Origin: Planctomycetota bacterium
Lineage (GTDB): Bacteria > Planctomycetota > UBA8108 > SXIK01
DNA length: 64,000 nt
Assembly (NCBI GenBank): GCA_965223265.1
Contig: OZ244999.1
Span: 3,872,001-3,936,000 of the forward strand
Direction: 5' to 3'
In this document: in pieces, positions 28,238 to 63,943 of the stretch
Layout: the number at the start of each line of letters is the position of its first letter
Position numbering within the stretch: position 1 is the stretch's first letter
Program-made: the position numbers and the translations under genes
The notes under the pieces: model-generated
Database searches by the model: none
Told to the model about the DNA's origin: nothing
Seen by the model: only the letters and a program-made list of their open reading frames with translations

Positions 28238-28280
28238 AAAAAGGACGGAGTCATCCCTCGTAGGTGACTCCGTCCTTTTT
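28238..28280. terminator. Bidirectional Rho-independent terminator
   Basis: AAAAAGGACGGAGTCA-loop-TGACTCCGTCCTTTTT between convergent genes. Confidence 0.9.
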
Positions 28281-28327: not shown

Positions 28328-29398
28328 TCAGACCGACGGCTGGCCCTCGCGCGCCTTCGCCTCGATCTCGTCGGCCGTGGAGAACTCGTTCCAGTACTCC
28401 TCGGGCATATCGAGTGCAATCTTCAGGGCACCGTTCGAACCCGCATACTGAGGCTCCTCGACGGTCGTGACCTTGCCACCGCCGTACTCCTTGAGAGCCT
28501 CCTCGATCGCCAAACCAAGGCCCTTGAGCTGACTGCCTCCTCCACCGAGGAGGATGTTGTCGCGCATTTTCGCCTGGAACTCAGGGTCGTACGTGGCAAC
28601 AAGATCTTGCAGCTTCTCGACCGTCGGCGGCACGATGGTGTAGCACGCTTCGTAGATCAAATCGGTGACGTCGAATTCCTGCGGCTTACCAGCCACCGGC
28701 ATCGTTACCGTCGCCCGATCCATGTTGCGACTCACGGAGGAGTATTTCTCTTTGAAAGTCCGCGCCATGTTGATCGTGAGCTGGGCGTCGGGATGCTTCT
28801 CTTGGATCAGCTTCAGTAGCGTCTCGTCGACCTTGTCGCCTGCGACTTCATGGCTGCGCTGATCATCTGGACCAGGCATTGTGCCGTGGACACGGCAGAG
28901 GTCAGTAGTACCGGCACCCAGATCGATAACCAGGGTGTCGTCGAGGAAGTCAAGACCGTAAGCGACGGCGAACGGCTCCGAGCAAATGATCACGCTGTCT
29001 GTGCAGTTCGAGGAGACTTCGAGGATCGTCGACTTACCTTCTACGCTCGCCTCAGCGGGCGCGCCGATGACCGCAAAGAGTGTGCTCCCCGCGGGAGCCT
29101 GCGCGAGGCCAATCGCGTGCTCGAGCAGGTCCTTGAGCGCGCGCTTGCGCTCGGATGAGTCCGTCGCACCTTTCACCTTGATGGATCCGCCGGCGAGCGG
29201 GCGCACCAGGTTCAGAGACATCCGGTTCTCGACGGCTTCCTTGCCGTAGATGACGTCTCGACCACCGAACTTCTTCTTGGCGACGTGATCCTTCGGGTAG
29301 CCGACGTACGACCACACGGTCTCACGTACGCCAGTCGACGTCGTAATCGACGTTCGACTCGTACCAAGATCAATTCCCAAGTAAATCGTCTCTGACAT
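28328..29398 (-). CDS. MamK/Mad28-family actin-like protein
   Basis: LGIDLGTS, VGYPKD, VIGAPA, SEPFAVAYGL, IDLGAGTTD, GT.PGP.DQ, GGGS, GAL.IA...P..YW all line up with MamK rather than MreB; GGAGG RBS. Confidence 0.88.
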   Translation of the reverse strand: MSETIYLGIDLGTSRTSITTSTGVRETVWSYVGYPKDHVAKKKFGGRDVIYGKEAVENRMSLNLVRPLAGGSIKVKGATDSSERKRALKDLLEHAIGLAQAPAGSTLFAVIGAPAEASVEGKSTILEVSSNCTDSVIICSEPFAVAYGLDFLDDTLVIDLGAGTTDLCRVHGTMPGPDDQRSHEVAGDKVDETLLKLIQEKHPDAQLTINMARTFKEKYSSVSRNMDRATVTMPVAGKPQEFDVTDLIYEACYTIVPPTVEKLQDLVATYDPEFQAKMRDNILLGGGGSQLKGLGLAIEEALKEYGGGKVTTVEEPQYAGSNGALKIALDMPEEYWNEFSTADEIEAKAREGQPSV

Positions 29399-29609
29399 AA
29401 ACCGGTCCTCCAGCGGGGTTGAACTACGCGTCGACGGTGATTGCGCGAGACGTTGCGCTTTCCCTCTACGGAGAAGAATGCCATCAAACCCCAGACTGTC
29501 ACCCCGACCTGGCGATAATCTCGCCCTTCATGCCCGATCCGGAGTTAGCTCGTGCCGACGCGGGCGTACCGAAGATCGAAAGTGGAAGCAGCTTACGCTT
29601 GACCTTCAC

Positions 29610-31553
29610 TCACTCGGCGTTGGTCATCTCGCGGCTGGATTGCTTCTGCTCTTCGCCAGACAATTGCGAGGAGGTGTCTGCATCTTGGACATCCTCTGCG
29701 GCGGGGGTGTCGTCGGTAGGAGCATCCGACGCAGTCGCCGACTCAGCGTCCGCCTGAGGCGCTGGCTTGGCGTCCGATCCGGGATCGGCGTCGTGGCCAC
29801 GAGCTTCGATCTGCGTGCGAATCTCTTTATTCTGTTGAAAGATATCCTTGAGAAGAGCCAGCTTGCGCTCACGGTTGGCGTCGCTGTCGAGAGTGCTTGC
29901 CACCACGTTGCGCACCTGAGCGCCGGCTTGCTCCAGTGCTTGGGCGCGCTGCTTCGCAACGTCCCGCTCGCGCTGTGCATCTTCAAGCGTTTTCGACAGT
30001 CGGCCGACTTTGCGCTCGAGCAAGGCGATTTGATCCGACTGCGCATCCTGCGCTTTGGCGCTGATCTTGTCGCGTTCCTCGTCGAGCAAGGTCGACACGA
30101 CCCGGCGCATCTCGTCGGCAAGCTCCGCGCTGATCCCGTTCTCTACAACGGCCCGCCGCATCAGACGCTGTAGGCGCGTCTCGATTTCTATCATTCCGGC
30201 GTCTGAAACGGTGAACTGATCGGCGCTGACGACTCGCTGCCGTTCCTCTTCGAGAAGCGCCTGAGCTCGTTCGAGCTGACTCTTCAGCACGTTCGACTGC
30301 TCTTCCAGCCCACGTTTCTCTGCCTGGAAGGCCTCGAGTCTGTCCTTGAAGCCGACTTCGGCCTCTTCAAGAAGCCGTTTTCGTTCCTTGTCATCGAGTG
30401 AGCGGCTCAACCCCTCAACAGCCTCTGAAACGGCATCATCGATGAACGACTTCACGGTCGACTCGTTGAGGACCCGCACTTTGTCGTGCCGCGCGGCGAG
30501 CTCCGAAGCGCGCACCATCTTGGCCTTGAGGCGCAGCGACTTGGTCACATCGCTCCCCTTCAACGCCTGCTGCAGGTTCGCACGATCGCTGCGTGGAGCA
30601 TCCCCCTTGACCATGTGCGAAAACCGGAAGCTCTTCGTCGGAGTCGCGACGATGCTGTCGGCGATCGGCGCCGATGACACTTGGTCCGGCATCACCAGTA
30701 CGCTAAAACCATCGCTCTCAGGCTCAGGCGTCGCGGCTGGTACGGCAGACGACGCTGTCGGACCTGGGGCAACCGGCGTCGCGAAGTCCTCTTCAGACAA
30801 CTGCGGAACCGTGATCGGAAGAAGCGCCTCGGGAGACTCTACGGAAAACTCAGACGTCGACGGCGCCGCGGCGTCCCCGCTGCTAGCGCTACCTTCAAGG
30901 ATCGGCACTACGAATCGCTGCAACCAGTCGTTGAGGCGATCCTCTCCCAGTGGGTCTGAGTGAATCCACTCAAGCCGAACTTGAGTCGCGACGCTTTCCT
31001 CATGTTCGTCGCTGTTCGTGTCTGAAGATAGCGCGCCCGCCGAAGTGATCGTGGCACCTTTCGGGGCGATCGTTTCGTCGACGACGTCCTCTGGAGACGC
31101 GTCGCCTGTCGCGGCAGAGATTTCAGCGTCACCGACAGCACGACCCTCCGGCGCCGTTGCAACGGAGGACGGTTCACTCGAAACGGTCGACTCATCGTTC
31201 GACTCTGGATCGACGGCGTCTTTCTCGACCTCCTCCTCCGCGAGCGCTTCGACTTTGTCTTGCTCGACGAGATCGAGGCTATCGTGCTCAACAGCGGAGG
31301 CGCCCGCGGCTTCAGAAACTCCGTCGCGAGCGATCGCCTCGACGACCGTCTTTGCGTAGAGCGACACTCGACGGCCGGACGCCAGCTCGACCACCACATC
31401 GAGGTAGACCTTTTCCGGCAGAACCTCCGGTTCGAAGAGTCGCGCGCCGGAGACACTTAGCTCCTTGACATCGAGCCGAACGTCGCCGTTCTCCGCGTGC
31501 TCGAGCAGACACCAGCACGCGCCGGGACTCAAGGTGTAGCAAGGATCTTTCAA
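29610..31553 (-). CDS. Acidic low-complexity protein with PilZ-like N-terminus and long C-terminal coiled coil
   Basis: TTG start after AGAGGA; ELSVSG strand motif; D/E/S/A/P-rich tracts; heptad-like region in the C-terminal half. Confidence 0.7.
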   Translation of the reverse strand: MKDPCYTLSPGACWCLLEHAENGDVRLDVKELSVSGARLFEPEVLPEKVYLDVVVELASGRRVSLYAKTVVEAIARDGVSEAAGASAVEHDSLDLVEQDKVEALAEEEVEKDAVDPESNDESTVSSEPSSVATAPEGRAVGDAEISAATGDASPEDVVDETIAPKGATITSAGALSSDTNSDEHEESVATQVRLEWIHSDPLGEDRLNDWLQRFVVPILEGSASSGDAAAPSTSEFSVESPEALLPITVPQLSEEDFATPVAPGPTASSAVPAATPEPESDGFSVLVMPDQVSSAPIADSIVATPTKSFRFSHMVKGDAPRSDRANLQQALKGSDVTKSLRLKAKMVRASELAARHDKVRVLNESTVKSFIDDAVSEAVEGLSRSLDDKERKRLLEEAEVGFKDRLEAFQAEKRGLEEQSNVLKSQLERAQALLEEERQRVVSADQFTVSDAGMIEIETRLQRLMRRAVVENGISAELADEMRRVVSTLLDEERDKISAKAQDAQSDQIALLERKVGRLSKTLEDAQRERDVAKQRAQALEQAGAQVRNVVASTLDSDANRERKLALLKDIFQQNKEIRTQIEARGHDADPGSDAKPAPQADAESATASDAPTDDTPAAEDVQDADTSSQLSGEEQKQSSREMTNAE

Positions 31554-31648: not shown

Positions 31649-31677
31649 AATATAGAATGGTGGAGTGCTCGTCGCAA
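31649..31677 (-). promoter_or_regulatory. Sigma70-type promoter upstream of the coiled-coil/actin genes
   Basis: TTGCGA-17 bp-TATATT on the minus strand, about 95 nt upstream of the start codon. Confidence 0.5.
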
Positions 31678-31890: not shown

Positions 31891-32202
31891 TCAGCCCGAT
31901 AGGCTGCCGAGGAGTTCGGTCATCTCACTGACAGCTCTCTCGTCTCCGACCGCGCGCGCCACCACGACGCCGCGCTCGAGAACTTCTCGGGCGGCGTCGA
32001 ACTGCGACAGTTCACCCAAGAGGCGCGCCTTGTGGAAGTAGGCAGCCACGTAGTTAGGGTCTGCTTGAAGGGTTCGGTCGAAGCGCCTCACAGCCTCGTC
32101 GGCGTTCCCTTCCTTGGCGAGCTCAAAGGCTAGCGCGTAGTTGAGGAATGGATCGTCCGGAGACTCAACAAGGAGTCGTTCTAGTTGCTCTCGGCTCGGC
32201 AT
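31891..32202 (-). CDS. Small TPR protein
   Basis: PDDPFLNYALAFE...DPNYVAAYFHKA TPR pattern. Confidence 0.85.
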   Translation of the reverse strand: MPSREQLERLLVESPDDPFLNYALAFELAKEGNADEAVRRFDRTLQADPNYVAAYFHKARLLGELSQFDAAREVLERGVVVARAVGDERAVSEMTELLGSLSG

Positions 32203-32306: not shown

Positions 32307-32717
32307 TCAATTGGTCTCAAGCGCTGCGCTCAGCGCAGCCTGCGCTGATTCCACCGTTGCGTTCGCGTCGAGGCGACCGAGAAGACGCTGATCAGGGCTC
32401 AGGAGCACGATTTCCGGCACGTACCGGGTCGACTTAAACTGATAGGTCCGTCGATCGAAGGACGACGACCGCGGGTCCGCCTTCACCACCACGAACTTCT
32501 CCTGCAGGCTCGCAACACGTCGATCGGAGAACACACGGTTCTCCAGGTCCACGCAGGCACCTCACCACTTGCCGCCGAACTTCAGAAGAATGGGACGCGA
32601 GTTCGCCTTGGCTGTGGCCAAGGCCGCGTCCCAGTCGTCGCTGCCGCCTCCGGGAGTGCAGCTTCCCACGACCGTTGCAATAGCAATAAAAGCCGATGTC
32701 GTAACGAGTTGTCTCAT
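32307..32717 (-). CDS. Thioredoxin-family lipoprotein, selenoprotein (UxxC; in-frame TGA at 32564-32562)
   Basis: GGAAAGGAG RBS; MRQLVTTSAFIAIATVVGSC lipobox; ...RPILLKFGGKW-TGA-GACVDLENRVFSD...YVPEIVLL; SECIS-like hairpin 3' of the TGA. Confidence 0.85.
32526..32544 (-). promoter_or_regulatory. Bacterial SECIS-like hairpin
   Basis: GGAGAAC-CGUGU-GUUCUCC; apical loop starts 24 nt after the UGA, with G at loop position 2. Confidence 0.65.
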
Positions 32718-32964
32718 TGAGCTCAGCTCCTTTCCAGTGGCAGTATCTTACCCTCCGAGCGGGCAGTGCGATAGCGCGCATGAGGCGCAGAAATGTGGGA
32801 CGCTGGCCGACGTGGGCAGCGGCATTTCACGACAGGGCGCGTTACAATCACTACTTACGATCAGGTTCGGTCCGCCGGAACGGCTTGCGGTCTGTTGTCG
32901 CGGGAAGACCGCCGCCGACGCCCGGGGCCTGTTGTTGGTATCGGCTCCAAAGAGATCTTCTTCA

Positions 32965-35900
32965 GTGCCCATCGTCCTACGATTGTCGCACGGCCAGGTT
33001 GTTCCGCTTCACTCCGGCACGGTCATCCGTATCGGCGCCGCGTCAACCTGTCAGATTCGCCTCGACCACCCCGACATTCTTCCGCAGCATCTGGCGCTCA
33101 AGCTCGAAGGCGATCAGGTGCGTCTCGCTGCGGTGGCCGACGCCGGTGTCTACGTCAACGACCGACCAGTGTCGAAAGCACTCCTACGTGTTAACGACCG
33201 CATTCGAGTCGCGACGTTCGAGGCGACGCTCGAATCGAGTGGCGCGTACTCGCTCGAAGGCAAGGTCCTCGACGGCTATCGCATCGAAAGCTGCCTCGGC
33301 CGCGGCGCCATGGGGACGGTCTATCGTGCCACCCAACTATCGCTCGATCGAACCGTCGCCCTCAAGATCCTTGCCGATCACGCCACGGAAGATCACGCTT
33401 TCGTGCAGGCTTTTTTGAAAGAGGCACGAGCCATCGCCAAACTGAACCATCCCCGCGTTGTCCAGGTCTACGACGCCGGCCAATGCGACGGAAAGTTCTA
33501 CTTTTCGATGGAGTTTCTATCGGGTGGGACCGTCGCCGATCTGCTGACTCGAGAAGAACGCCTGCCGATGGAACGAGCCTTGACCATCGCGCTTGACGCG
33601 GCAGATGCGCTCGTGTGGGCGGAGGAGCAAGAGATCGTTCACCGTGACATCAAGCCAGCGAACCTCCTGCTCACCGAGGACGGCGCCGTGAAGGTCGGCG
33701 ACCTTGGCATCGCGCTCGACACGACCCAACGAACCGCGCAAGACGCCACGCGCAAGGCAGGTTCCCCGAAATACATGGCGCCCGAACAGGCACTGGGAAA
33801 ACCCGTCGATCGGCGCGCCGACATCTATGGACTTGGCAGCACGATCTTTCACATGCTTGCCGGCCGCCCGCCGTTCGAAGGGCAGTCGATGGCCGACCTC
33901 ATGCGTGCGAAGCTCGCTGAGGAGGCGCCAAGACTCGACGAATTCATGGCCATTGTGCCGCCACAAATCAATCGACTCGTCGCCAAGAGTCTGGCTCGCG
34001 AAGCGGAAGACCGCTTCAGCACGTGTGCTGAGATGCGAGATGCGATCGAGTCCGCGCTGCAGAGTCTTTCCCAACAGCAGGAGCCTCAAGAGAATAAAAG
34101 GATACACCGGACGCTCAAAAGAAAGCGCACCCTGGAGCGCCTATCGCTGTTCGCGTCTGTCGTGATCATTGTCGCCGCAGCCGTGTGGGCAACTCGCCCC
34201 AAGGACCCATCGGTGCAGCAGCCGCCCCCCACAACAACTGACGTGGATGTCGGAGCCAACAAACCGAAAACGCCGCAACAAGACTCGACCCACTCATCAG
34301 CTGACTCAAGCGACACGCAGCTCGCGGAGCTCCGGGACATTCGGCGGCGCTGGCAAAAAGGCTTGCTCACCGATGACGCCGCATTGCTTCAGTACAACAG
34401 GTTCCGCACGCTTCACCCAGGCGTGCATCGAAAGACTGTGGACGCGTTCCACGCCGAAGTCCAAACGGAGATCGTTCAAGCAGAGAAGAAAGTGGTCGAG
34501 CAGGAGGTTGCCAAACGAATTATGCCTTTGATCGACCGCGGTGAGTTCCGGCAAGCAGCGACTCATATTGCAAGCATTCGCGAGAAATACCGCCACGGAT
34601 CAGCGCCAGTGGACAAGGCGACGGACAAGATCCGGACGAAAGTAGGACTACTGATCGACGAGTCATTTGCCGTTGTCTCACAGCTCGTTGACGAGGGCAA
34701 GCTATCTTCTGCTCTCGATGAGCTCGACGCCCTCGCCTCGCTTGTGCCGTTCGAGTTCCGCAGTAAGGTGGACGATCGCCGTGAAGAAATCGACGCGATG
34801 GTCACGACTTTTTCGATTCGCGAGCGACAGCTCCGCGAGATCGAAGGAGACGTTTGGGTGGCACTCAGCCTTGGTGAAGCAGACGATGCCGAGGCACTGG
34901 CGCGTTCCGTCCCACCGGTCGCTCCGCTCTCCGCCGTCGATTCGCTCATCTCTGATCGCCGATCCGAGATGATCGGAGATGTCGAGCGGGCAGTGAGGAC
35001 CTGGAAGCGACTAAGAAAAGAGCTAAAAGACCTTCAGAAGCGAAGGAAGGCTTTCGTCTTCGCTTTCGCGCCCGATTGCCAGGAGAAGTTCGCCCGGTCG
35101 AAGTTTAGGGCATACGTCGGCGCACTAGGCGAAAGTCGTGTCACAGTTCACAGATCGAGAGGAGTGCGCCAACGAACGTTCGATGTGTTGGATCTCTCGG
35201 ACGAAGTGCTTCTCACACTGCTGGATTCGACCGAATCGCCGCCAGCGGAGATCAGCCAAGGCTTAGCGACGTTGCTGCTTCTAAGCCGAGGGCCGCAGCG
35301 CGCACGCCCCCTCTTGACGTCGCCTCGTCTGACGGGCGAGGATCGCGCGTCCAATCTCCACAAACTCGATGGAGGCGAGGAGAATTACCTGACTCGTGTG
35401 CTCTTTGGTGTAAGACGCCAATACGAGGCTGCTGCTACTCACTCGACGCCGGCACCCGTAGAGTCGCAAAGAAGAACCACTGAAGCCCTCGTACAGGCAT
35501 TGGTGCGTGTCATCACGAGCTATCGAGAAGATCCGGCATACGGAGAGCATCGCGCTGAGTTTTCTTCCCTCTTTCTCAAGTCGCACATAGCTCACGCTCG
35601 AGCCTACGGCGTTGAGACACTGTTCTCTGGCGAAGTGACGCGTTCAACCAACGACAGCGTTGACGTCTTCTACGATTTTTTGAGTAAGGAACAGCTCGCA
35701 GACTTCACGAAAACGACACCTGACACATCGACTCGCATCACAGACGAAGGTCTCGAGCTGTCAGGTGAGGTGAGACTGTTGCGGGGGATCCCCTTCAAGA
35801 GATACCTGAGCGTCACACTGGATGTACCAGCTGGTGGATACCATCTCAACGCTCCGAACATCAACCTCGCCCTCTGGACGCATGATGGCGATCTCGTCTC

Positions 35901-36414
35901 AGCGGGCCGCGGCCAATCCGCGGCGCGACCGAAGCAGAGCCCCGGCGACTACTTCGTCTTCGCGATCGGCTTCAAACCGTCGTCGATCAGTCGGTCCCAC
36001 CTACGAGTACGTGGGTTGAGCACCTCCGTACCCATGCCGGCCAACGCTTTCATGGGCGGCGAGCGCGGAACGAAACTCCTCACCTACCCGACCGACGAGT
36101 GTATCTGGGCATCCAGCGTCCAAGGAAAAACGCAAGGCGATCAACGTCTCGCGGTGGACATGAGCCCGCAGTCCCTCACCTGGACTGTGAATGGCGAAGC
36201 TATTCCCATCACCGATTCACGGGAAGCGGACCGCTTCAAGTCCCGCGCTTTTTACTCAGGTTCGTTCACACTATTCACGAACGGACAGAGGGTGGTCTTT
36301 CGCAGCTTACGCATCGGTGCGACGTTGTCGAGCGAGTGGATCGAAGAAGAGTTCGAGCGCCATGCACACGCCGCCCTCGAAACAATCGACCCGGTCGGGA
36401 CCGCGGAGGAGTAG
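32965..36414 (+). CDS. FHA-domain Ser/Thr protein kinase with TM helix and large C-terminal region
   Basis: FHA-like N-terminus (IRIG...C.IRL...H), GRGAMGTVY, VALK, HRDIKPAN, DLG, YMAPE, DIYGLG; GTG 32965 chosen because earlier starts overlap the selenoprotein gene or its divergent upstream region. Confidence 0.9.
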   Translation: MPIVLRLSHGQVVPLHSGTVIRIGAASTCQIRLDHPDILPQHLALKLEGDQVRLAAVADAGVYVNDRPVSKALLRVNDRIRVATFEATLESSGAYSLEGKVLDGYRIESCLGRGAMGTVYRATQLSLDRTVALKILADHATEDHAFVQAFLKEARAIAKLNHPRVVQVYDAGQCDGKFYFSMEFLSGGTVADLLTREERLPMERALTIALDAADALVWAEEQEIVHRDIKPANLLLTEDGAVKVGDLGIALDTTQRTAQDATRKAGSPKYMAPEQALGKPVDRRADIYGLGSTIFHMLAGRPPFEGQSMADLMRAKLAEEAPRLDEFMAIVPPQINRLVAKSLAREAEDRFSTCAEMRDAIESALQSLSQQQEPQENKRIHRTLKRKRTLERLSLFASVVIIVAAAVWATRPKDPSVQQPPPTTTDVDVGANKPKTPQQDSTHSSADSSDTQLAELRDIRRRWQKGLLTDDAALLQYNRFRTLHPGVHRKTVDAFHAEVQTEIVQAEKKVVEQEVAKRIMPLIDRGEFRQAATHIASIREKYRHGSAPVDKATDKIRTKVGLLIDESFAVVSQLVDEGKLSSALDELDALASLVPFEFRSKVDDRREEIDAMVTTFSIRERQLREIEGDVWVALSLGEADDAEALARSVPPVAPLSAVDSLISDRRSEMIGDVERAVRTWKRLRKELKDLQKRRKAFVFAFAPDCQEKFARSKFRAYVGALGESRVTVHRSRGVRQRTFDVLDLSDEVLLTLLDSTESPPAEISQGLATLLLLSRGPQRARPLLTSPRLTGEDRASNLHKLDGGEENYLTRVLFGVRRQYEAAATHSTPAPVESQRRTTEALVQALVRVITSYREDPAYGEHRAEFSSLFLKSHIAHARAYGVETLFSGEVTRSTNDSVDVFYDFLSKEQLADFTKTTPDTSTRITDEGLELSGEVRLLRGIPFKRYLSVTLDVPAGGYHLNAPNINLALWTHDGDLVSAGRGQSAARPKQSPGDYFVFAIGFKPSSISRSHLRVRGLSTSVPMPANAFMGGERGTKLLTYPTDECIWASSVQGKTQGDQRLAVDMSPQSLTWTVNGEAIPITDSREADRFKSRAFYSGSFTLFTNGQRVVFRSLRIGATLSSEWIEEEFERHAHAALETIDPVGTAEE

Positions 36415-59869: not shown

Positions 59870-61069
59870 TTACGTGTGGTGCAACAGGCCCGACGGACGC
59901 TCATCAACGACGTGAAGAGAACGCGGCTCATCGCGCGGCGTGAGGTCAGGCGACGCCATGACACTCACGCGGCGGGACGCCACCGCGTACACGAGCGCCA
60001 CAGCGGCATAAGACGAGACAAGACTGGAGCCACCGTAACTCACGAACGGCAAGGTAAGTCCCGTGATCGGCGTCAGCCCCATAGCCATACCGATGTTCTG
60101 AAGACCTTGAGCTGCGAAGCCGACACCGACCCCTGTAGCGAGCAATCGCCCGAACGGCTCCCGTGCGTAGATCGCCACCCGAAGAATCATCACGACGAGG
60201 AGAAAGAACCCAAGAATCGACAAGGCGGCGCCAACAAATCCAAGCTCTTCGGCGATCACGCTGAAAATGAAATCCGTGTGCCGCTCGGGCAGAAAGTCGA
60301 GCCGATTCTGCGTTCCGAGGCCGTAACCTTTGCCCAGGAACCCGCCGGAACCTATAGCGATTTCGGATTGATCGAGTTGATAACCGTCGTCCTGCCGCGA
60401 CGCCTCACCGCGAAAGAGAAAAGCCGCGATCCTCTCGTATTGATACTCGCGGACGATCGGAACACCAATGCGGTAGGCAAAGTAGGCCGTCGGTAGCAGC
60501 GACGCGCCAATCACGATCGCGGCGAGTAGATACTTCCAGCGCGCACCAGCCACGAAGAGCATGCCGAGGAGGATCGGGGGAAACATGAGACTTGTACCGA
60601 GGTCGGGCTGCAAAAGCACCAGCGCCATCGGCAGCACTGTCAAACTGAACGGGATGACGAGGCCACGAAGTCGGTGCTGGTCCTCGCGGAAGCGGAGATA
60701 GCGAGCCAGAACCAGCACGAGTGCAATTTTCATAAGCTCGCTCGGCTGAATCTGGAACACACGCAGGTTGATCGAACGCAAGATCCCACCGCGGGAAAAC
60801 TTGGCGGCAAGCATCACGGCGAGGACACACATGAGGCCTACGAAAAGGACGTAGGCGTAGCGGTCCCAGAGTCGGTAGTCGAAACGCGAAATGATCACGA
60901 ACGCGCAGACGCCAACACATGCCTTGACGATTTGCGAGCGCGCATCTTGGCCGGGAAAGTCGCCCGAGTGGAGGTCGGTCGAATGGACGAACGCAACTCC
61001 CAGAACGGTCAACAACAGCGGCAACATGAGCAGCCCGAGTCTGGTGAACGGTCCAACCGTCGCCTTCAT
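59870..61069 (-). CDS. rodA: Rod shape-determining SEDS protein RodA
   Basis: QPSELMK, QPDLGT, YQ..QS.IAIGSGG..GKG, LPE.HTDFIFS...EE.G, P.TG.TLPFVSYGGSS. Confidence 0.92.
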   Translation of the reverse strand: MKATVGPFTRLGLLMLPLLLTVLGVAFVHSTDLHSGDFPGQDARSQIVKACVGVCAFVIISRFDYRLWDRYAYVLFVGLMCVLAVMLAAKFSRGGILRSINLRVFQIQPSELMKIALVLVLARYLRFREDQHRLRGLVIPFSLTVLPMALVLLQPDLGTSLMFPPILLGMLFVAGARWKYLLAAIVIGASLLPTAYFAYRIGVPIVREYQYERIAAFLFRGEASRQDDGYQLDQSEIAIGSGGFLGKGYGLGTQNRLDFLPERHTDFIFSVIAEELGFVGAALSILGFFLLVVMILRVAIYAREPFGRLLATGVGVGFAAQGLQNIGMAMGLTPITGLTLPFVSYGGSSLVSSYAAVALVYAVASRRVSVMASPDLTPRDEPRSLHVVDERPSGLLHHT

Positions 61070-63342
61070 CTCTCTGCTCCGGAAAGGAAGTACGCGTCCG
61101 GATCGACACTGGCGAAACGTTTTTTGATCATCCTGCTGACAATCGGCGCGCAGACGTCGGCTCCGTGCCCCCCCGTGCCTTCAACGACGACAACAAAAGC
61201 TATCCGCGGCGGCGCGTCGATCAATTCACCGCTAGCGGATGCCGGTGCGAATCCCGCAAGCCATGCATCGTTCGTCTCTCCAGCGCCGGGGCGTGCGGCA
61301 CGCTCGGCTGTACCGGACTTGGCTGCGACGCGAAGCCCGAGCAAACCGTGGTGCTCCTTGGCGGCAGTGCCGGGAGCTCCACGTCGATCATGAGTGACGC
61401 GCCACATCGCCCGTCGCAAGTACATCGCAGTCGACGCGTCGTTGAAAACACTCCCGCTGCGGTCAAAGCTCACGGCGCAGCCATCCGTGGAGCCGGGGTG
61501 CGGTCGCGGCGCCACGAGATGCGGCTGGATCCGCCGACCATCTGTCGCAATCGTGGCCACACTGGAGAGCACCTGTAGTGCTGTGGCGCGAACGTGAACC
61601 TGCCCGATCGAGTAGCGGCACACCTGAATGCCTTCCACGGCATCAGCAGGTTTGAGGAATCCAGACTGATCCAAGGGCACGAGGTCGATCCCCACCGGGC
61701 AGCCGTACCCAAGCCTCTCCGCCCAGGGATGAAATCGCTCCGCTGTCAGTCGCTGGAGACCAAGTTCGTAAAAATACGTGTTGCACGAAACCTTGAGCGC
61801 CGTCGACAGATCGAGACCGTCGAGACCATGGCCGGTCGTGCTGACGCAGCGCAGACCATAGGGCTCGTAGCGGTGCTCGCAGCGCAGCAGATCGGTGGGG
61901 GAGTAGCCAGTCTCGGCGGCCGACTCGAGAGCCGCCGCCGCCAGCACAAGCTTAAATACGGAGCCCGGATCCATCGCGTGTCGGCTTGGGCGGTCCAAAA
62001 ACCACCCGTCAGTCCGCCCACCCCAGCGTCGGGTCATCTCCTCGAGGTAACTAGCATACTCACGCCCGAGCATGCGATTCGGGTCAAACGAGGGCAAGCC
62101 GACGTACGCAAGCAGGGCTCCTGTACTCAGGTCCATCACGACGGCGCTTGCCGCAGCACCGCCGGACTGCCCGCGCAGCACGCTCTCAAGCTCGCGATGG
62201 AGGAATCTCTGCAGCTCGAGATCGACGGTACAGTAAAGATCGACTCCGTCCTCGGGCTCCACCTCGGCAATGACGCGAACCGTTCGGCCGACACTGTCGA
62301 CCTGCCGTACCCGCGCACCGTAACGACCACGCAGCTGGTCTTCATAGAACGCTTCGAGACCGAGAGCTCCAACAAGATCTTTCTCGCTGCGCAGGTACGG
62401 ACGCAAGGCGATGAATTCTTCGGTGTCGAAAGTGCCGTCGAACCGAGCCCGTTCGACGGTGAGCCCTTGAGCCCGCAGCTCCTCGATGAGCTCAGCTTCC
62501 GGCCGGCGTAAGTGGCCGAGAAACGAGCCACAAATTTCGCGCTCCGGATAAAAGCGCCGATCCGCATGGACGCACTTCAGACCACGAAAGTCCGTCGGGC
62601 TGTACTCAATTGCGGTCACCACATCAAGGGATACGTCGCGCAGAAGCGGTCGCCACTGCAACCGTAGCCCCGGCGCAATACGGCCGACGCTATCGACAAG
62701 CCGCTCGTAAATTTGAGTCACCGACTCGGACCCTCGCGCTGCGACGACTCTCGCCACCCGCATCAGCGCAAACTCCTCGTTGAAGAGGACCGTCGGCGAG
62801 AAGCAGAGCTCGTGCCGACGACCACCCTCTTCCATCGGACGCAGCAAAAACGCGCGCCGCACTGCTCGGCGCTGCCGCTTGAGCCGTTTTCGCAACCTCT
62901 CCGCGATGGGGCGATCGATCCGAGTCAGAAACGGTATCCATTGGGTGGGCTGACTGTGACCGCGAGCATCTGCGAATTGACTGTTCGTGATCGGGTCGAT
63001 TTCGGCCAGCTGTCGCATTCGCGCTTCAAGAGTCTGGCGATCGAAGCCGATGTCGCCCCGGAAAACCCTGAACAAGCTGTCCAGCAAGCGCTCTCTCGGA
63101 CTCAAGTCACGGTGGAAAACGTGCAATTCAAACGTCGGTTGGTTGACCGACAGCACGTGACCGTCTTGGGAAAGGATGCGCCCCCGACGTGGGGCCGGGT
63201 AACTGATGGCGAGGTGTTGCGAGCGGCGGAGAAACTCCGCGTGGCGTTCACCGTCGAGCTGAAGCGCCGCGAGCCGCACAGTCAACACTGCGTAGAGCGC
63301 GCCCAGTATCACGATCAACGTTGCGATGCGCCTTCGAACCAT
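61066..63342 (-). CDS. mrdA: Penicillin-binding protein 2 (class B)
   Basis: TM then RG.I..G; R.YP; GLE..Y...L.G..G; SVFK, SCN and KSG catalytic motifs; lies between mreD and rodA. Confidence 0.88.
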   Translation of the reverse strand: MVRRRIATLIVILGALYAVLTVRLAALQLDGERHAEFLRRSQHLAISYPAPRRGRILSQDGHVLSVNQPTFELHVFHRDLSPRERLLDSLFRVFRGDIGFDRQTLEARMRQLAEIDPITNSQFADARGHSQPTQWIPFLTRIDRPIAERLRKRLKRQRRAVRRAFLLRPMEEGGRRHELCFSPTVLFNEEFALMRVARVVAARGSESVTQIYERLVDSVGRIAPGLRLQWRPLLRDVSLDVVTAIEYSPTDFRGLKCVHADRRFYPEREICGSFLGHLRRPEAELIEELRAQGLTVERARFDGTFDTEEFIALRPYLRSEKDLVGALGLEAFYEDQLRGRYGARVRQVDSVGRTVRVIAEVEPEDGVDLYCTVDLELQRFLHRELESVLRGQSGGAAASAVVMDLSTGALLAYVGLPSFDPNRMLGREYASYLEEMTRRWGGRTDGWFLDRPSRHAMDPGSVFKLVLAAAALESAAETGYSPTDLLRCEHRYEPYGLRCVSTTGHGLDGLDLSTALKVSCNTYFYELGLQRLTAERFHPWAERLGYGCPVGIDLVPLDQSGFLKPADAVEGIQVCRYSIGQVHVRATALQVLSSVATIATDGRRIQPHLVAPRPHPGSTDGCAVSFDRSGSVFNDASTAMYLRRAMWRVTHDRRGAPGTAAKEHHGLLGLRVAAKSGTAERAARPGAGETNDAWLAGFAPASASGELIDAPPRIAFVVVVEGTGGHGADVCAPIVSRMIKKRFASVDPDAYFLSGAER

Positions 63343-63436
63343 GATTCGATTCCTGGCGAACCTCTGAACCTAGATAGGCGTCAAGACAAGGACCCGCCAA
63401 ATTCAAACGGTCAACCCTCTACGACTCACCTCGAGG

Positions 63437-63943
63437 TCAACCTCCCGATTGCAGAAAGGCAACGCGCGGCGTGGCAATTGACGCCCCGAGCGGCCTCAGA
63501 AGCTCGACGACGACAACGCTCATTGACACGTCGTAGACGGCTCGCGCCAGGACCACGCCCCACGCCGGAAGCAGGGAATCACCCGCCAAGACAAACAACA
63601 TACAGTGCGTGATCGCGTTGGCGTAAAGTGCCGAGAAAGCGACTGCTGAACTGCGTGTGAGAAAGTCTCCACCAAGGCGCCAGGCACGAATGCGCAGCAA
63701 AGCGAGCGCAGCAAGCACGTAGGCGATTGAATGCGTGCCCGCCGCATCGAGGGAAAAAAGCTCCACGACAAGCCCTGCCAGCGCCGCCGAGATCAAAACC
63801 CGCGCGGGAGGAGCAAATAGTGCGATGAAACAGAGTACTGCGAGGACGAAATCGGGGGCGATGCCGGCAAACGAGTACACGGGTAACGTCACCGCTTGAT
63901 ACACAAATGCGACAGAAAGGAGGACGAGCAACGTGCGATTCAC
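63437..63943 (-). CDS. mreD: Rod shape-determining protein MreD
   Basis: Hydrophobic, PDF.L...; GL..E..S...G pattern; position upstream of mrdA. Confidence 0.75.
   Translation of the reverse strand: MNRTLLVLLSVAFVYQAVTLPVYSFAGIAPDFVLAVLCFIALFAPPARVLISAALAGLVVELFSLDAAGTHSIAYVLAALALLRIRAWRLGGDFLTRSSAVAFSALYANAITHCMLFVLAGDSLLPAWGVVLARAVYDVSMSVVVVELLRPLGASIATPRVAFLQSGG

Follow-up and report, generated by a model that had tools for sequence, protein, structure and literature searches.

A conserved gene pair in Planctomycetota encodes a MamK-family actin and a coiled-coil protein predicted to dock on it

Introduction

Actin-like proteins of the MamK family occur in magnetosome gene clusters and also outside magnetotactic bacteria. 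According to the accessible part of its description, saltatorellin is a MamK-like actin of the non-magnetotactic, Planctomycetes-related Saltatorellota and forms filaments in E. coli and M. gryphiswaldense (10.1101/817700). BeeR, as presented in the accessible part of its report, is a three-stranded tubular MamK-related actin of the Verrucomicrobiota and the Planctomycetes-Verrucomicrobia-Chlamydiae (PVC) group (PMC11929497; PDB 8r2n). For Desulfovibrio magneticus RS-1, the sections available of a further study describe two-hybrid interactions of the coiled-coil protein Mad25 with both MamK and Mad28 (PMC12748827). Here we analyze a locus from a Planctomycetota bacterium in which the gene for a 356-aa MamK-family actin is directly preceded by the gene for a 647-aa acidic coiled-coil protein, hereafter the partner. 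The locus lies in a stretch of 64,000 nt (positions 3,872,001 to 3,936,000 of contig OZ244999.1, assembly GCA_965223265.1), hereafter the window. An initial annotation, made from the sequence alone, had proposed a filament-plus-adaptor module that resembles MamK and its acidic neighbor MamJ, has no connection with magnetosomes and would position internal membranes, vesicles or another organelle.

Many Planctomycetes possess complex envelopes with invaginations and divide without FtsZ. Their cytoskeleton is barely known, so that a defined two-gene module would be a concrete handle on it. Our analysis favors, at somewhat better than even odds (a probability of about 0.55), a bicistronic module present in much of the Planctomycetota, in which the MamK-family actin is served by a dedicated partner that docks on it by the last helix of its coiled coil. 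Literature searches turned up no account of either the partner family or the conserved pair; supplements (for example that of 10.1101/817700) and most subscription journals were outside its reach and an earlier mention may exist.

Results

The actin is a member of the MamK family

The window is part of a complete single-contig genome of 9,179,496 bases (9.18 Mb), the relatives of which are labelled Planctomycetota. Both open reading frames (ORFs) were found as initially annotated, on the minus strand and with the acidic coiled-coil protein directly upstream of the actin (Table 1). The MamK-type signatures reported for the actin were all located in its translation, with GIDLGTS at residues 8-14, VGYPKD at 32-37, SEPFAVAYGL at 140-149, GTMPGPDDQ at 172-180 and PEEYW at 332-336, and these five motifs align with the same motifs of the solved MamK.

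The best family model and the nearest solved structure were both MamK, over the full length of the protein. The NCBIfam MamK model NF040964 gave 392.2 bits (E 1.7e-117), which is 8 bits short of its cut-off of 400, and the MamK structures 5jyg/5ljv matched residues 4-339 with 260 bits (E 1.8e-76). Among the relatives, loci L036 (414.4 bits) and L037 (403.5 bits) lie above the same cut-off and L084 (385.7 bits) lies below it. The NCBIfam model of BeeR gave 199.8 bits against a cut-off of 530, and two MreB models gave 60.3 bits (cut-off 293) and 50.5 bits (cut-off 365.75). The corresponding matches in the PDB were 130 bits for BeeR 8r2n and 36 bits for MreB. With 392.2 versus 60.3 bits in NCBIfam and 260 versus 36 bits in the PDB, the protein is of the MamK type and not an MreB, as had been proposed.

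The translation begins 7 residues ahead of GIDLGTS and is without the N-terminal extension of 30-50 aa that is typical of BeeR. Residues D10, G12, T13, S14, D159, G161, A162, G163, D166 and G286-G288 are invariant in 26 aligned relatives. The motifs DLGTS, SEPF, DxGAGTTD and GGGS, which we take to be the phosphate-1, connect-1, phosphate-2 and adenosine motifs, vary little or not at all within the same set, and the nucleotide motifs of the ASKHA proteins are thus intact. Identity to the actin was 73-83% among 119 other matches listed. The protein belongs to a known kind of actin that NCBI covers with its MamK family model and that includes saltatorellin and the related BeeR.

The gene pair is conserved across the phylum

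The occurrence of the pair was examined in a sample of 201 Planctomycetota genomes, in which actins were called at E<=1e-40 and adjacency was tabulated by hand from the match coordinates. The actin was present in 66 genomes. In 50 of these a partner homologue lies directly upstream on the same strand; in one it is divergently oriented, in one the two genes are split over contig ends and in 14 there is none. All assessable actin matches of at least 62% identity (21/21) had the partner immediately upstream in the same orientation, and one more was split over two contig ends. Among 63 matches of 45-57% identity the partner was directly upstream on the same strand in 39 cases, divergent in one, not assessable in two and missing in 21. 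Three remote actin paralogues in the sample had no partner beside them. Searches with the partner matched 22/201 genomes when its single sequence was used, 39/201 with a profile of the long forms and 75/201 with a profile of five short forms, the last figure including weak matches elsewhere in the genomes, which are confined to the front part of the domain.

On contigs of named genomes the partner was found beside the actin on the same strand at 63 of 74 loci, 53 of them with the partner upstream and gaps of -4 to 211 nt. The other ten paired loci, labelled Verrucomicrobia, have the partner downstream, so the order is swapped and the association kept. Eight of the 11 remaining loci had too little upstream DNA and three had no partner (L077, L108 and an MreB-like protein). 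When gene order was compared over 20 loci, only the two genes were shared beyond the genome of the same family. The pairing seen in the window thus recurs in its relatives, with 50/66 genomes in the phylum sample.

The partner is predicted to dock on the actin

Complex models were computed for one actin monomer and one partner chain comprising the coiled-coil domain (residues 331-590). Three runs gave values of 0.74, 0.75 and 0.75 for the interface score ipSAE, and the best control reached 0.01. The same mark was attained by 58 of 80 solved complexes and by 2 of 110 mismatched pairs, rates that hold only roughly here since our own alignments were used. The runs had at least 53% of their contacts in common, with a predicted local distance difference test (pLDDT) value for the partner of at least 68. 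The PDB contains no sequence relative of the partner profile, so the models are unlikely, as far as sequence goes, to have passed by recalling a known structure. The prediction, with 0.75 versus 0.01 for the best control, agrees with the initial proposal that the two proteins act together. In the models, partner residues 543-585 contact actin residues 19-25, 119-127, 137-153, 172-174 and 315-344.

The conserved core of the partner is a coiled coil

Among 8000 candidates scored, 62 partner homologues were found at E<=0.001, and those with a name were all called 'hypothetical'. The partner had no family match in NCBIfam and only a sub-threshold coiled-coil match in Pfam, its profile gave no match at E<=1 in PDB sequences, and a search of the ESM Atlas with the coiled-coil domain gave a best score of 0.83, below the mark of 0.9, and no named family. 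The protein is rich in Ala (13.1%), Glu (11.1%), Ser (10.4%) and Asp (8.7%), has an isoelectric point (pI) of 4.5 and contains no transmembrane-like stretch. Its gene starts with a TTG codon, the position of which aligns with the starts of the homologues. The fold prediction (mean pLDDT 61.8) and an alignment of 16 homologues (alignment A1) divide it into the segments of Table 1.

Nearly all invariant columns of the alignment fall in the coiled-coil domain. The C-terminal helix of this domain carries the motif DPxRxxKLxLMKEIxxxNRxLR, in which N575 is found in all of 41 homologues and K564 and R579 are each kept in at least 90% of them, and a genome-wide search found the motif in no protein other than the partner. 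Short homologues of about 260 aa consist of the coiled-coil domain alone and end at the conserved helix; they precede actins of 45-57% identity to that of the window. The helix is the extreme C-terminus of the short forms, and the conserved unit thus closes with it in all forms. As judged from these alignments, no other element of the partner family is as persistent as the putative docking helix.

The segments that follow and precede the coiled coil vary. Instead of the acidic tail of the window's protein, the tails of homologues in alignment A1 carry PDDxPWE and PPL motifs. Many long forms have a repeated GTRRxxxP in the linker as well as PDDxPWE/PPL in the tail, and all of these are missing from the protein of the window.

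Several other proteins (G053:C152:65184-65867, G018:C160:12589-13269, G000:C1:6317693-6318811 and others) resemble the coiled-coil profile over its front two thirds only. They are without the C-terminal helix, do not lie beside an actin and may form a paralogous family.

Both genes that flank the actin in the Verrucomicrobia-labelled relatives are very divergent, yet they keep the docking helix. In metagenome-assembled genomes (MAGs) labelled Verrucomicrobia or Akkermansia (L084-L093, L098 and L101) an actin of 64-67% identity is followed by a partner-like gene. At six of ten loci (L084, L085, L086, L088, L092 and L101) a protein of about 520-580 aa with the same C-terminal helix motif precedes the actin. 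The upstream protein of L084 contains a hydrophobic stretch of 23 residues, for which reason a membrane-anchored version may exist; an assignment of this protein as LysM/FimV-like was dropped as there was no Pfam match.

Long forms carry a PilZ-fold head, and acidity is not a family trait

A Foldseek search with the partner head gave PilZ-domain proteins as the top 10 among the matches listed, including MrkH (5kgo, E 6.4e-4), 4xrn, Alg44 (4rt0) and YcgR (5y6g). These matches had a probability of 1.00 and template modeling scores by target of 0.27-0.55 (0.62 at rank 14), and one match had E<=0.001. The Pfam PilZ model PF07238 had no match in the window's protein and matched 3 of the 16 aligned homologues. 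Structure prediction thus assigns residues 1-75 and 188-222 of the partner to a PilZ fold, of which W196 and D200 are each retained by at least 90% of the sequences in alignment A1.

PilZ domains bind cyclic dimeric guanosine monophosphate (c-di-GMP) through the motifs RxxxR and (D/N)xSxxG. Over the initial 45 residues, RxxxR was found neither in the window's partner nor in 27/31 P-numbered homologues, and the other four have their match within an N-terminus that is longer or truncated. In the partner ELSVSG stands in place of the second motif, and the form E[ILV]SxxG occurs in 13/31 homologues. Judged by these motifs, the c-di-GMP signature of the PilZ-fold head is absent or degenerate.

The window's partner is the most acidic of 41 homologues, with a pI of 4.5 versus a median of 5.38. 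Long forms have pI values of 4.8-5.9 with one outlier of 9.4, four short forms range from 6.5 to 9.1 and the fifth, at L036, has 9.3. The acidic insert of about 110 aa that splits the barrel (32 Asp/Glu and 6 Lys/Arg in residues 76-195) is present in one of the 16 aligned sequences, that of the window. Strong acidity is thus largely lineage-specific, and the conserved traits are a charge-balanced coiled coil with its C-terminal helix and, in long forms, the PilZ-fold head. The analogy with MamJ drawn in the initial annotation was therefore built on features that the family does not conserve.

The genome contains no magnetosome genes

The absence of magnetosome genes, initially noted for the window, was extended to the complete genome with seven Mam core models. 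The best scores, each followed by its cut-off, were 22/300 bits for MamP, 69.7/250 for MamQ, 71.9/800 for MamO, 49/350 for MamB, 125.9/800 for MamE and 28.3/350 for MamM, and MamI gave no match. The matches below cut-off are of a generic kind and occurred likewise in control genomes. As a positive control, the magnetosome locus L108 of the Nitrospirae MAG nDJH6bin1 gave 469 bits for MamK, 230 bits for MamP and 280 bits for MamM, so the models are able to detect divergent Mam proteins. The model NF040962 proved to describe an unrelated family (near_HgcAB). The claim of the annotation thus holds for the whole 9.18-Mb genome with respect to MamB, E, I, M, O, P and Q, and the module is unconnected with magnetosomes in this genome. 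At L108 a 172-aa ORF without family match lies directly upstream of mamK.

The paired actins form a clade of their own

The genome holds five actin-like loci, that of the window included. Another is a canonical MreB (426.5 bits on PF06723), encoded just past the right end of the window beside the genes for MreD, PBP2 and RodA, and these three genes occupy window positions 59870-63943. A BeeR-like paralogue (L002, G000:C1:5231375-5232409, ORF 1489-2682 minus), which is MamK-related, scored best on the BeeR model (377.4 bits, cut-off 530), carries an N-terminal extension of about 45 aa as described for BeeR, and has no coiled-coil partner beside it. The two other loci, L003 and L004 (G000:C1:3174409-3175389 and 8738008-8738862), encode actin-like proteins with about 121-122 bits on the MamK model.

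In the whole library 163 representatives matched the actin at E<=1e-30, which indicates that MamK-like sequence space is small. Most are named 'rod shape-determining protein' and only one (P0240) is labelled magnetosome MamK. A careful tree was calculated from 56 rows after 29 of 85 had been dropped as long or redundant; the paralogues L003 and L004 were excluded because their alignment coverage was too low, and the tree contained no labelled Mad28, ParM or AlfA sequence. The planctomycete paired actins formed one clade (support 93/91), the close relatives a clade with 100/99, and the magnetosome MamK anchors L108 and P0240 fell in other clades. A quick tree had placed the Nitrospirae magnetosome MamK as sister with a value of 92 in the Shimodaira-Hasegawa-like approximate likelihood ratio test (SH-aLRT), a relation that the careful tree did not uphold (supports of 45-60). 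The phylogeny that the annotation had suggested thus separates the paired actins from the MamK anchors, whereas the order of the deep branches is weakly supported.

The library also contained other MamK-like proteins. P0240 (768 aa, labelled 'Magnetosome protein MamK' in NCBI nr) has 120 initial residues that read as FtsZ-like and point to a fusion of an FtsZ-like with a MamK part. Further MamK-like proteins come from MAGs labelled Nitrosomonadaceae, Acidobacteriota, Gemmatimonadota and Nitrospinota, and the P0195 cluster contains MamK-like actins of MAGs labelled as ANME-2 and Methanosarcinales archaea. A well-supported clade (P0197-P0224) consists of proteins of 523-1232 aa in which a long extension, coiled-coil-like and N-terminal, is fused to a C-terminal MamK-like domain; the extension shows no detectable relation to the partner. 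A Rosetta-stone search of 150 listed MamK-like representatives, proteins of this size among them, with the hidden Markov model of the partner coiled coil gave no match at E<=1, and there is thus no fusion evidence for the pair.

Features of the locus and neighboring genes

The features of the locus are collected in Table 1. A scan of the minus strand between the partner and actin genes found no terminator-like site. Since the consensus scans performed at chance level, the promoter match and the hairpin are given as positions only. Just upstream of the operon the window encodes a 103-aa TPR protein (31891-32202, minus strand) and a 1281-aa protein with FHA and Ser/Thr kinase domains (32569-36414, plus strand). 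Both genes are common to the genome of the same family, and the kinase also matches locus L024.

Table 1. Positions of the features of the actin/partner locus in the window, with the evidence for each.
Feature	Position	Strand	Evidence
Terminator-like hairpin and T run 3' of the actin stop (weak evidence)	28240..28259	-	Scan; 3 in region vs 3.9 expected
MamK-family actin-like ATPase, 356 aa	28328..29398	-	ORF, ATG start; NCBIfam and PDB scores; invariant nucleotide motifs
Intergenic spacer, 211 nt	29399..29609	-	GGAGG at 29407-29411, 8 nt ahead of the actin ATG
Partner, 647 aa, with a predicted PilZ-fold head, a disordered linker, a coiled coil and an acidic tail	29610..31553	-	ORF, homologues, alignment A1, fold
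Acidic disordered tail, not conserved, residues 591-647	29613..29783	-	14 Asp/Glu vs 3 Lys/Arg; pLDDT 33-40
Conserved coiled-coil domain, family core, residues 331-590	29784..30563	-	51 invariant columns in A1; helices 336-588
C-terminal amphipathic helix, predicted actin-docking element, residues 556-588	29790..29888	-	Complex-model interface, motif alignment
Ser/Pro/Ala-rich disordered linker, residues 223-330	30564..30887	-	pLDDT 31-49; composition; not alignable among homologues
PilZ-like domain, last strand and helix, residues 188-222	30888..30992	-	Strand 189-196, helix 201-219, pLDDT 88-91
Disordered acidic insert within the PilZ-like domain, residues 76-187	30993..31328	-	pLDDT <50; composition
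PilZ-like beta barrel, first part, residues 1-75	31329..31553	-	pLDDT 83-94 (residues 1-70); strands within 5-74
Sigma-70-like promoter match 5' of the partner gene (weak evidence)	31649..31677	-	Consensus scan; 1 found vs 0.6 expected (shuffles)

Discussion

A MamK-type actin, a genome without magnetosome genes, a conserved pair and a complex model that passes its controls make a two-gene filament-plus-partner module the best reading of the locus. The actin presumably polymerizes, given its intact nucleotide motifs and its relatives, and the coiled coil of about 250 aa in the partner probably oligomerizes. For the helix at about residues 556-588 the prediction is a docking site on the actin's barbed-end face, at subdomain IA, the IA/IIA cleft and the DMPEEYW segment. 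In actin-like filaments the IA/IIA cleft takes part in subunit-subunit contacts and is the face that accepts the next subunit; a partner docked there would bind filament ends or monomers. It could act as ParR does on ParM, where the C-terminal helix of ParR occupies the IA/IIA pocket of the terminal subunit of the filament, or as WH2-type helices do on actin. In the lineage of the window the coiled coil is joined via about 100 disordered residues to the N-terminal PilZ-fold domain, and since this head is without c-di-GMP motifs it most likely binds a protein and so connects the filament with a cellular target. The partner is best read as an adaptor or end-binding factor that would be ParR-like in its logic more than MamJ-like. 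Of the initially proposed filament-plus-adaptor module, the module itself is upheld by the conserved pair, the complex model and the lack of mam genes, whereas the MamJ-like adaptor logic is not. Shared gene order, limited to the two genes, speaks neither for nor against the internal membranes, vesicles or organelle proposed as cargo.

Several observations weigh against this module. The complex is a prediction that includes neither a filament nor a partner oligomer, and its interface comprises what we take, from general actin anatomy, to be subdomain IA and the IA/IIA cleft with the DMPEEYW segment. The interface is not more conserved than the rest of the proteins, with values of 0.77 versus 0.71 elsewhere for the actin (p=0.077) and 0.55 versus 0.61 elsewhere for the partner (p=0.92). 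The 14 of 66 genomes without a partner beside the actin include all seven of family f57, one further genome has the divergent arrangement, and the close second actin copy at L077 is also without a partner.

A more far-reaching reading, which we put forward tentatively, is that the module is an ancient planctomycete cytomotive system. The coiled-coil adaptor would ride on or cap the barbed end of the MamK-type filament by its ParR-like helix, and variable heads would couple filament growth to a cell structure. The head would be the PilZ fold here and a protein that spans the membrane in the relatives labelled Verrucomicrobia, while the short forms would have none; examples of possible targets are FtsZ-independent division or budding and the organization of the envelope and its invaginations. 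If this were true, positioning actins would make up a wider family whose members each have an adaptor of their own, and the magnetosome MamK would be one specialized branch of it.

It is also conceivable, if rather unlikely, that the partner is a regulator of polymerization, such as a capper, nucleator or monomer sequesterer, instead of a cargo adaptor, and that the PilZ-fold head feeds in a signal. The predicted docking site overlaps the face that we take to make longitudinal contacts, the short forms consist of coiled coil and helix with no obvious cargo domain, and PilZ domains are typically signal receivers. However, the canonical c-di-GMP motifs are missing, with RxxxR absent in most forms and D/NxSxxG replaced or lost, and a coiled coil of about 200 residues with a long linker exceeds what a capper needs. 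The two roles are moreover compatible; ParR is both adaptor and regulator.

Far less probable is a chromosomal DNA segregation system of the ParMRC type (type II) with the partner as centromere-binding adaptor. The pair of actin and adaptor genes and the modeled C-terminal docking helix are as in ParR/ParM, but scans with Pfam, NCBIfam and Foldseek found no DNA-binding domain in the partner and ParM-type Pfam models gave only 21-22 bits on the actin. The module is furthermore chromosomal and vertically conserved with no mobile-element context, and its order of adaptor then actin is the reverse of parM-parR. We consider it very improbable that an ancestral magnetosome cluster left the actin behind as a relic when its other genes were lost, and that the neighbor is incidental. 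The actin scores just below the MamK cut-off, its tier-2 relatives pass it (414 and 403.5 bits) and the quick tree showed the sister relation, but the careful tree is without it and gives the paired clade as its own lineage. The retention of the partner in 50/66 genomes shows that the neighbor is not incidental, the true magnetosome MamK locus is without the partner, and the sequence of the actin is highly conserved. Almost no weight falls on two merely adjacent genes with proteins that do not interact. In favor of this reading, gene neighborhood alone is weak evidence and interface conservation is not raised, but the pairing persists over actin identities of 45-100% and through a swap of gene order, and the complex model stands far above its controls.

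A MamK-type actin is present in about a third of the sampled genomes of the phylum, mostly with a dedicated partner beside it. The specific predicted docking helix means that a small number of point mutants would suffice to test the interaction. In bacteria that are not magnetotactic, actins of the MamK family thus come with their own adaptors, which bears on the evolution of the magnetosome cytoskeleton.

Comparison with known systems

The closest described protein is MamK itself, with which the actin shares a full-length alignment and the same signature motifs including the C-terminal P..YW. It is 45-46% identical to the MamK that lies beside mamP and mamM in the Nitrospirae locus. It differs in its occurrence in a genome without magnetosome genes, in belonging to its own planctomycete clade and in having a partner that the magnetosome locus lacks. 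For saltatorellin the comparison is limited to the termini encoded by the primers in the accessible part of the source, which in our own translation read MTDITTD... and ...YWEQLK and resemble ...FWEQLK in L036 (10.1101/817700). That part of the source mentions no partner gene, unlike the locus described here (10.1101/817700). BeeR is more distant, as the score of 199.8 bits against 530 and the lack of the disordered N-terminal extension of 30-50 aa indicate (PMC11929497, accessible part).

With the MamJ and Mad proteins the partner has in common that an acidic or coiled-coil protein is encoded near a MamK-type actin, as far as the available sections of the source describe these (PMC12748827). 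It differs in that NCBIfam and Pfam detect no sequence relation, its acidity is not conserved and there is no magnetosome context. The PilZ adaptors MrkH, Alg44, YcgR and MapZ resemble the partner in the predicted PilZ fold of its N-terminal domain, but its c-di-GMP motifs are absent or degenerate and its domain is split by the 110-aa acidic insert.

ParM/ParR, finally, is also an actin-like filament with an adjoining adaptor gene, and there too the C-terminal helix of the adaptor binds at IA/IIA, as predicted here. The partner differs from ParR in being without a ribbon-helix-helix DNA-binding domain, the module is chromosomal and phylum-wide, and the actins are remotely related (ParM_N 21.8 bits). 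The planctomycete pair would thus combine an actin of the MamK kind with a partner that is ParR-like in its logic.

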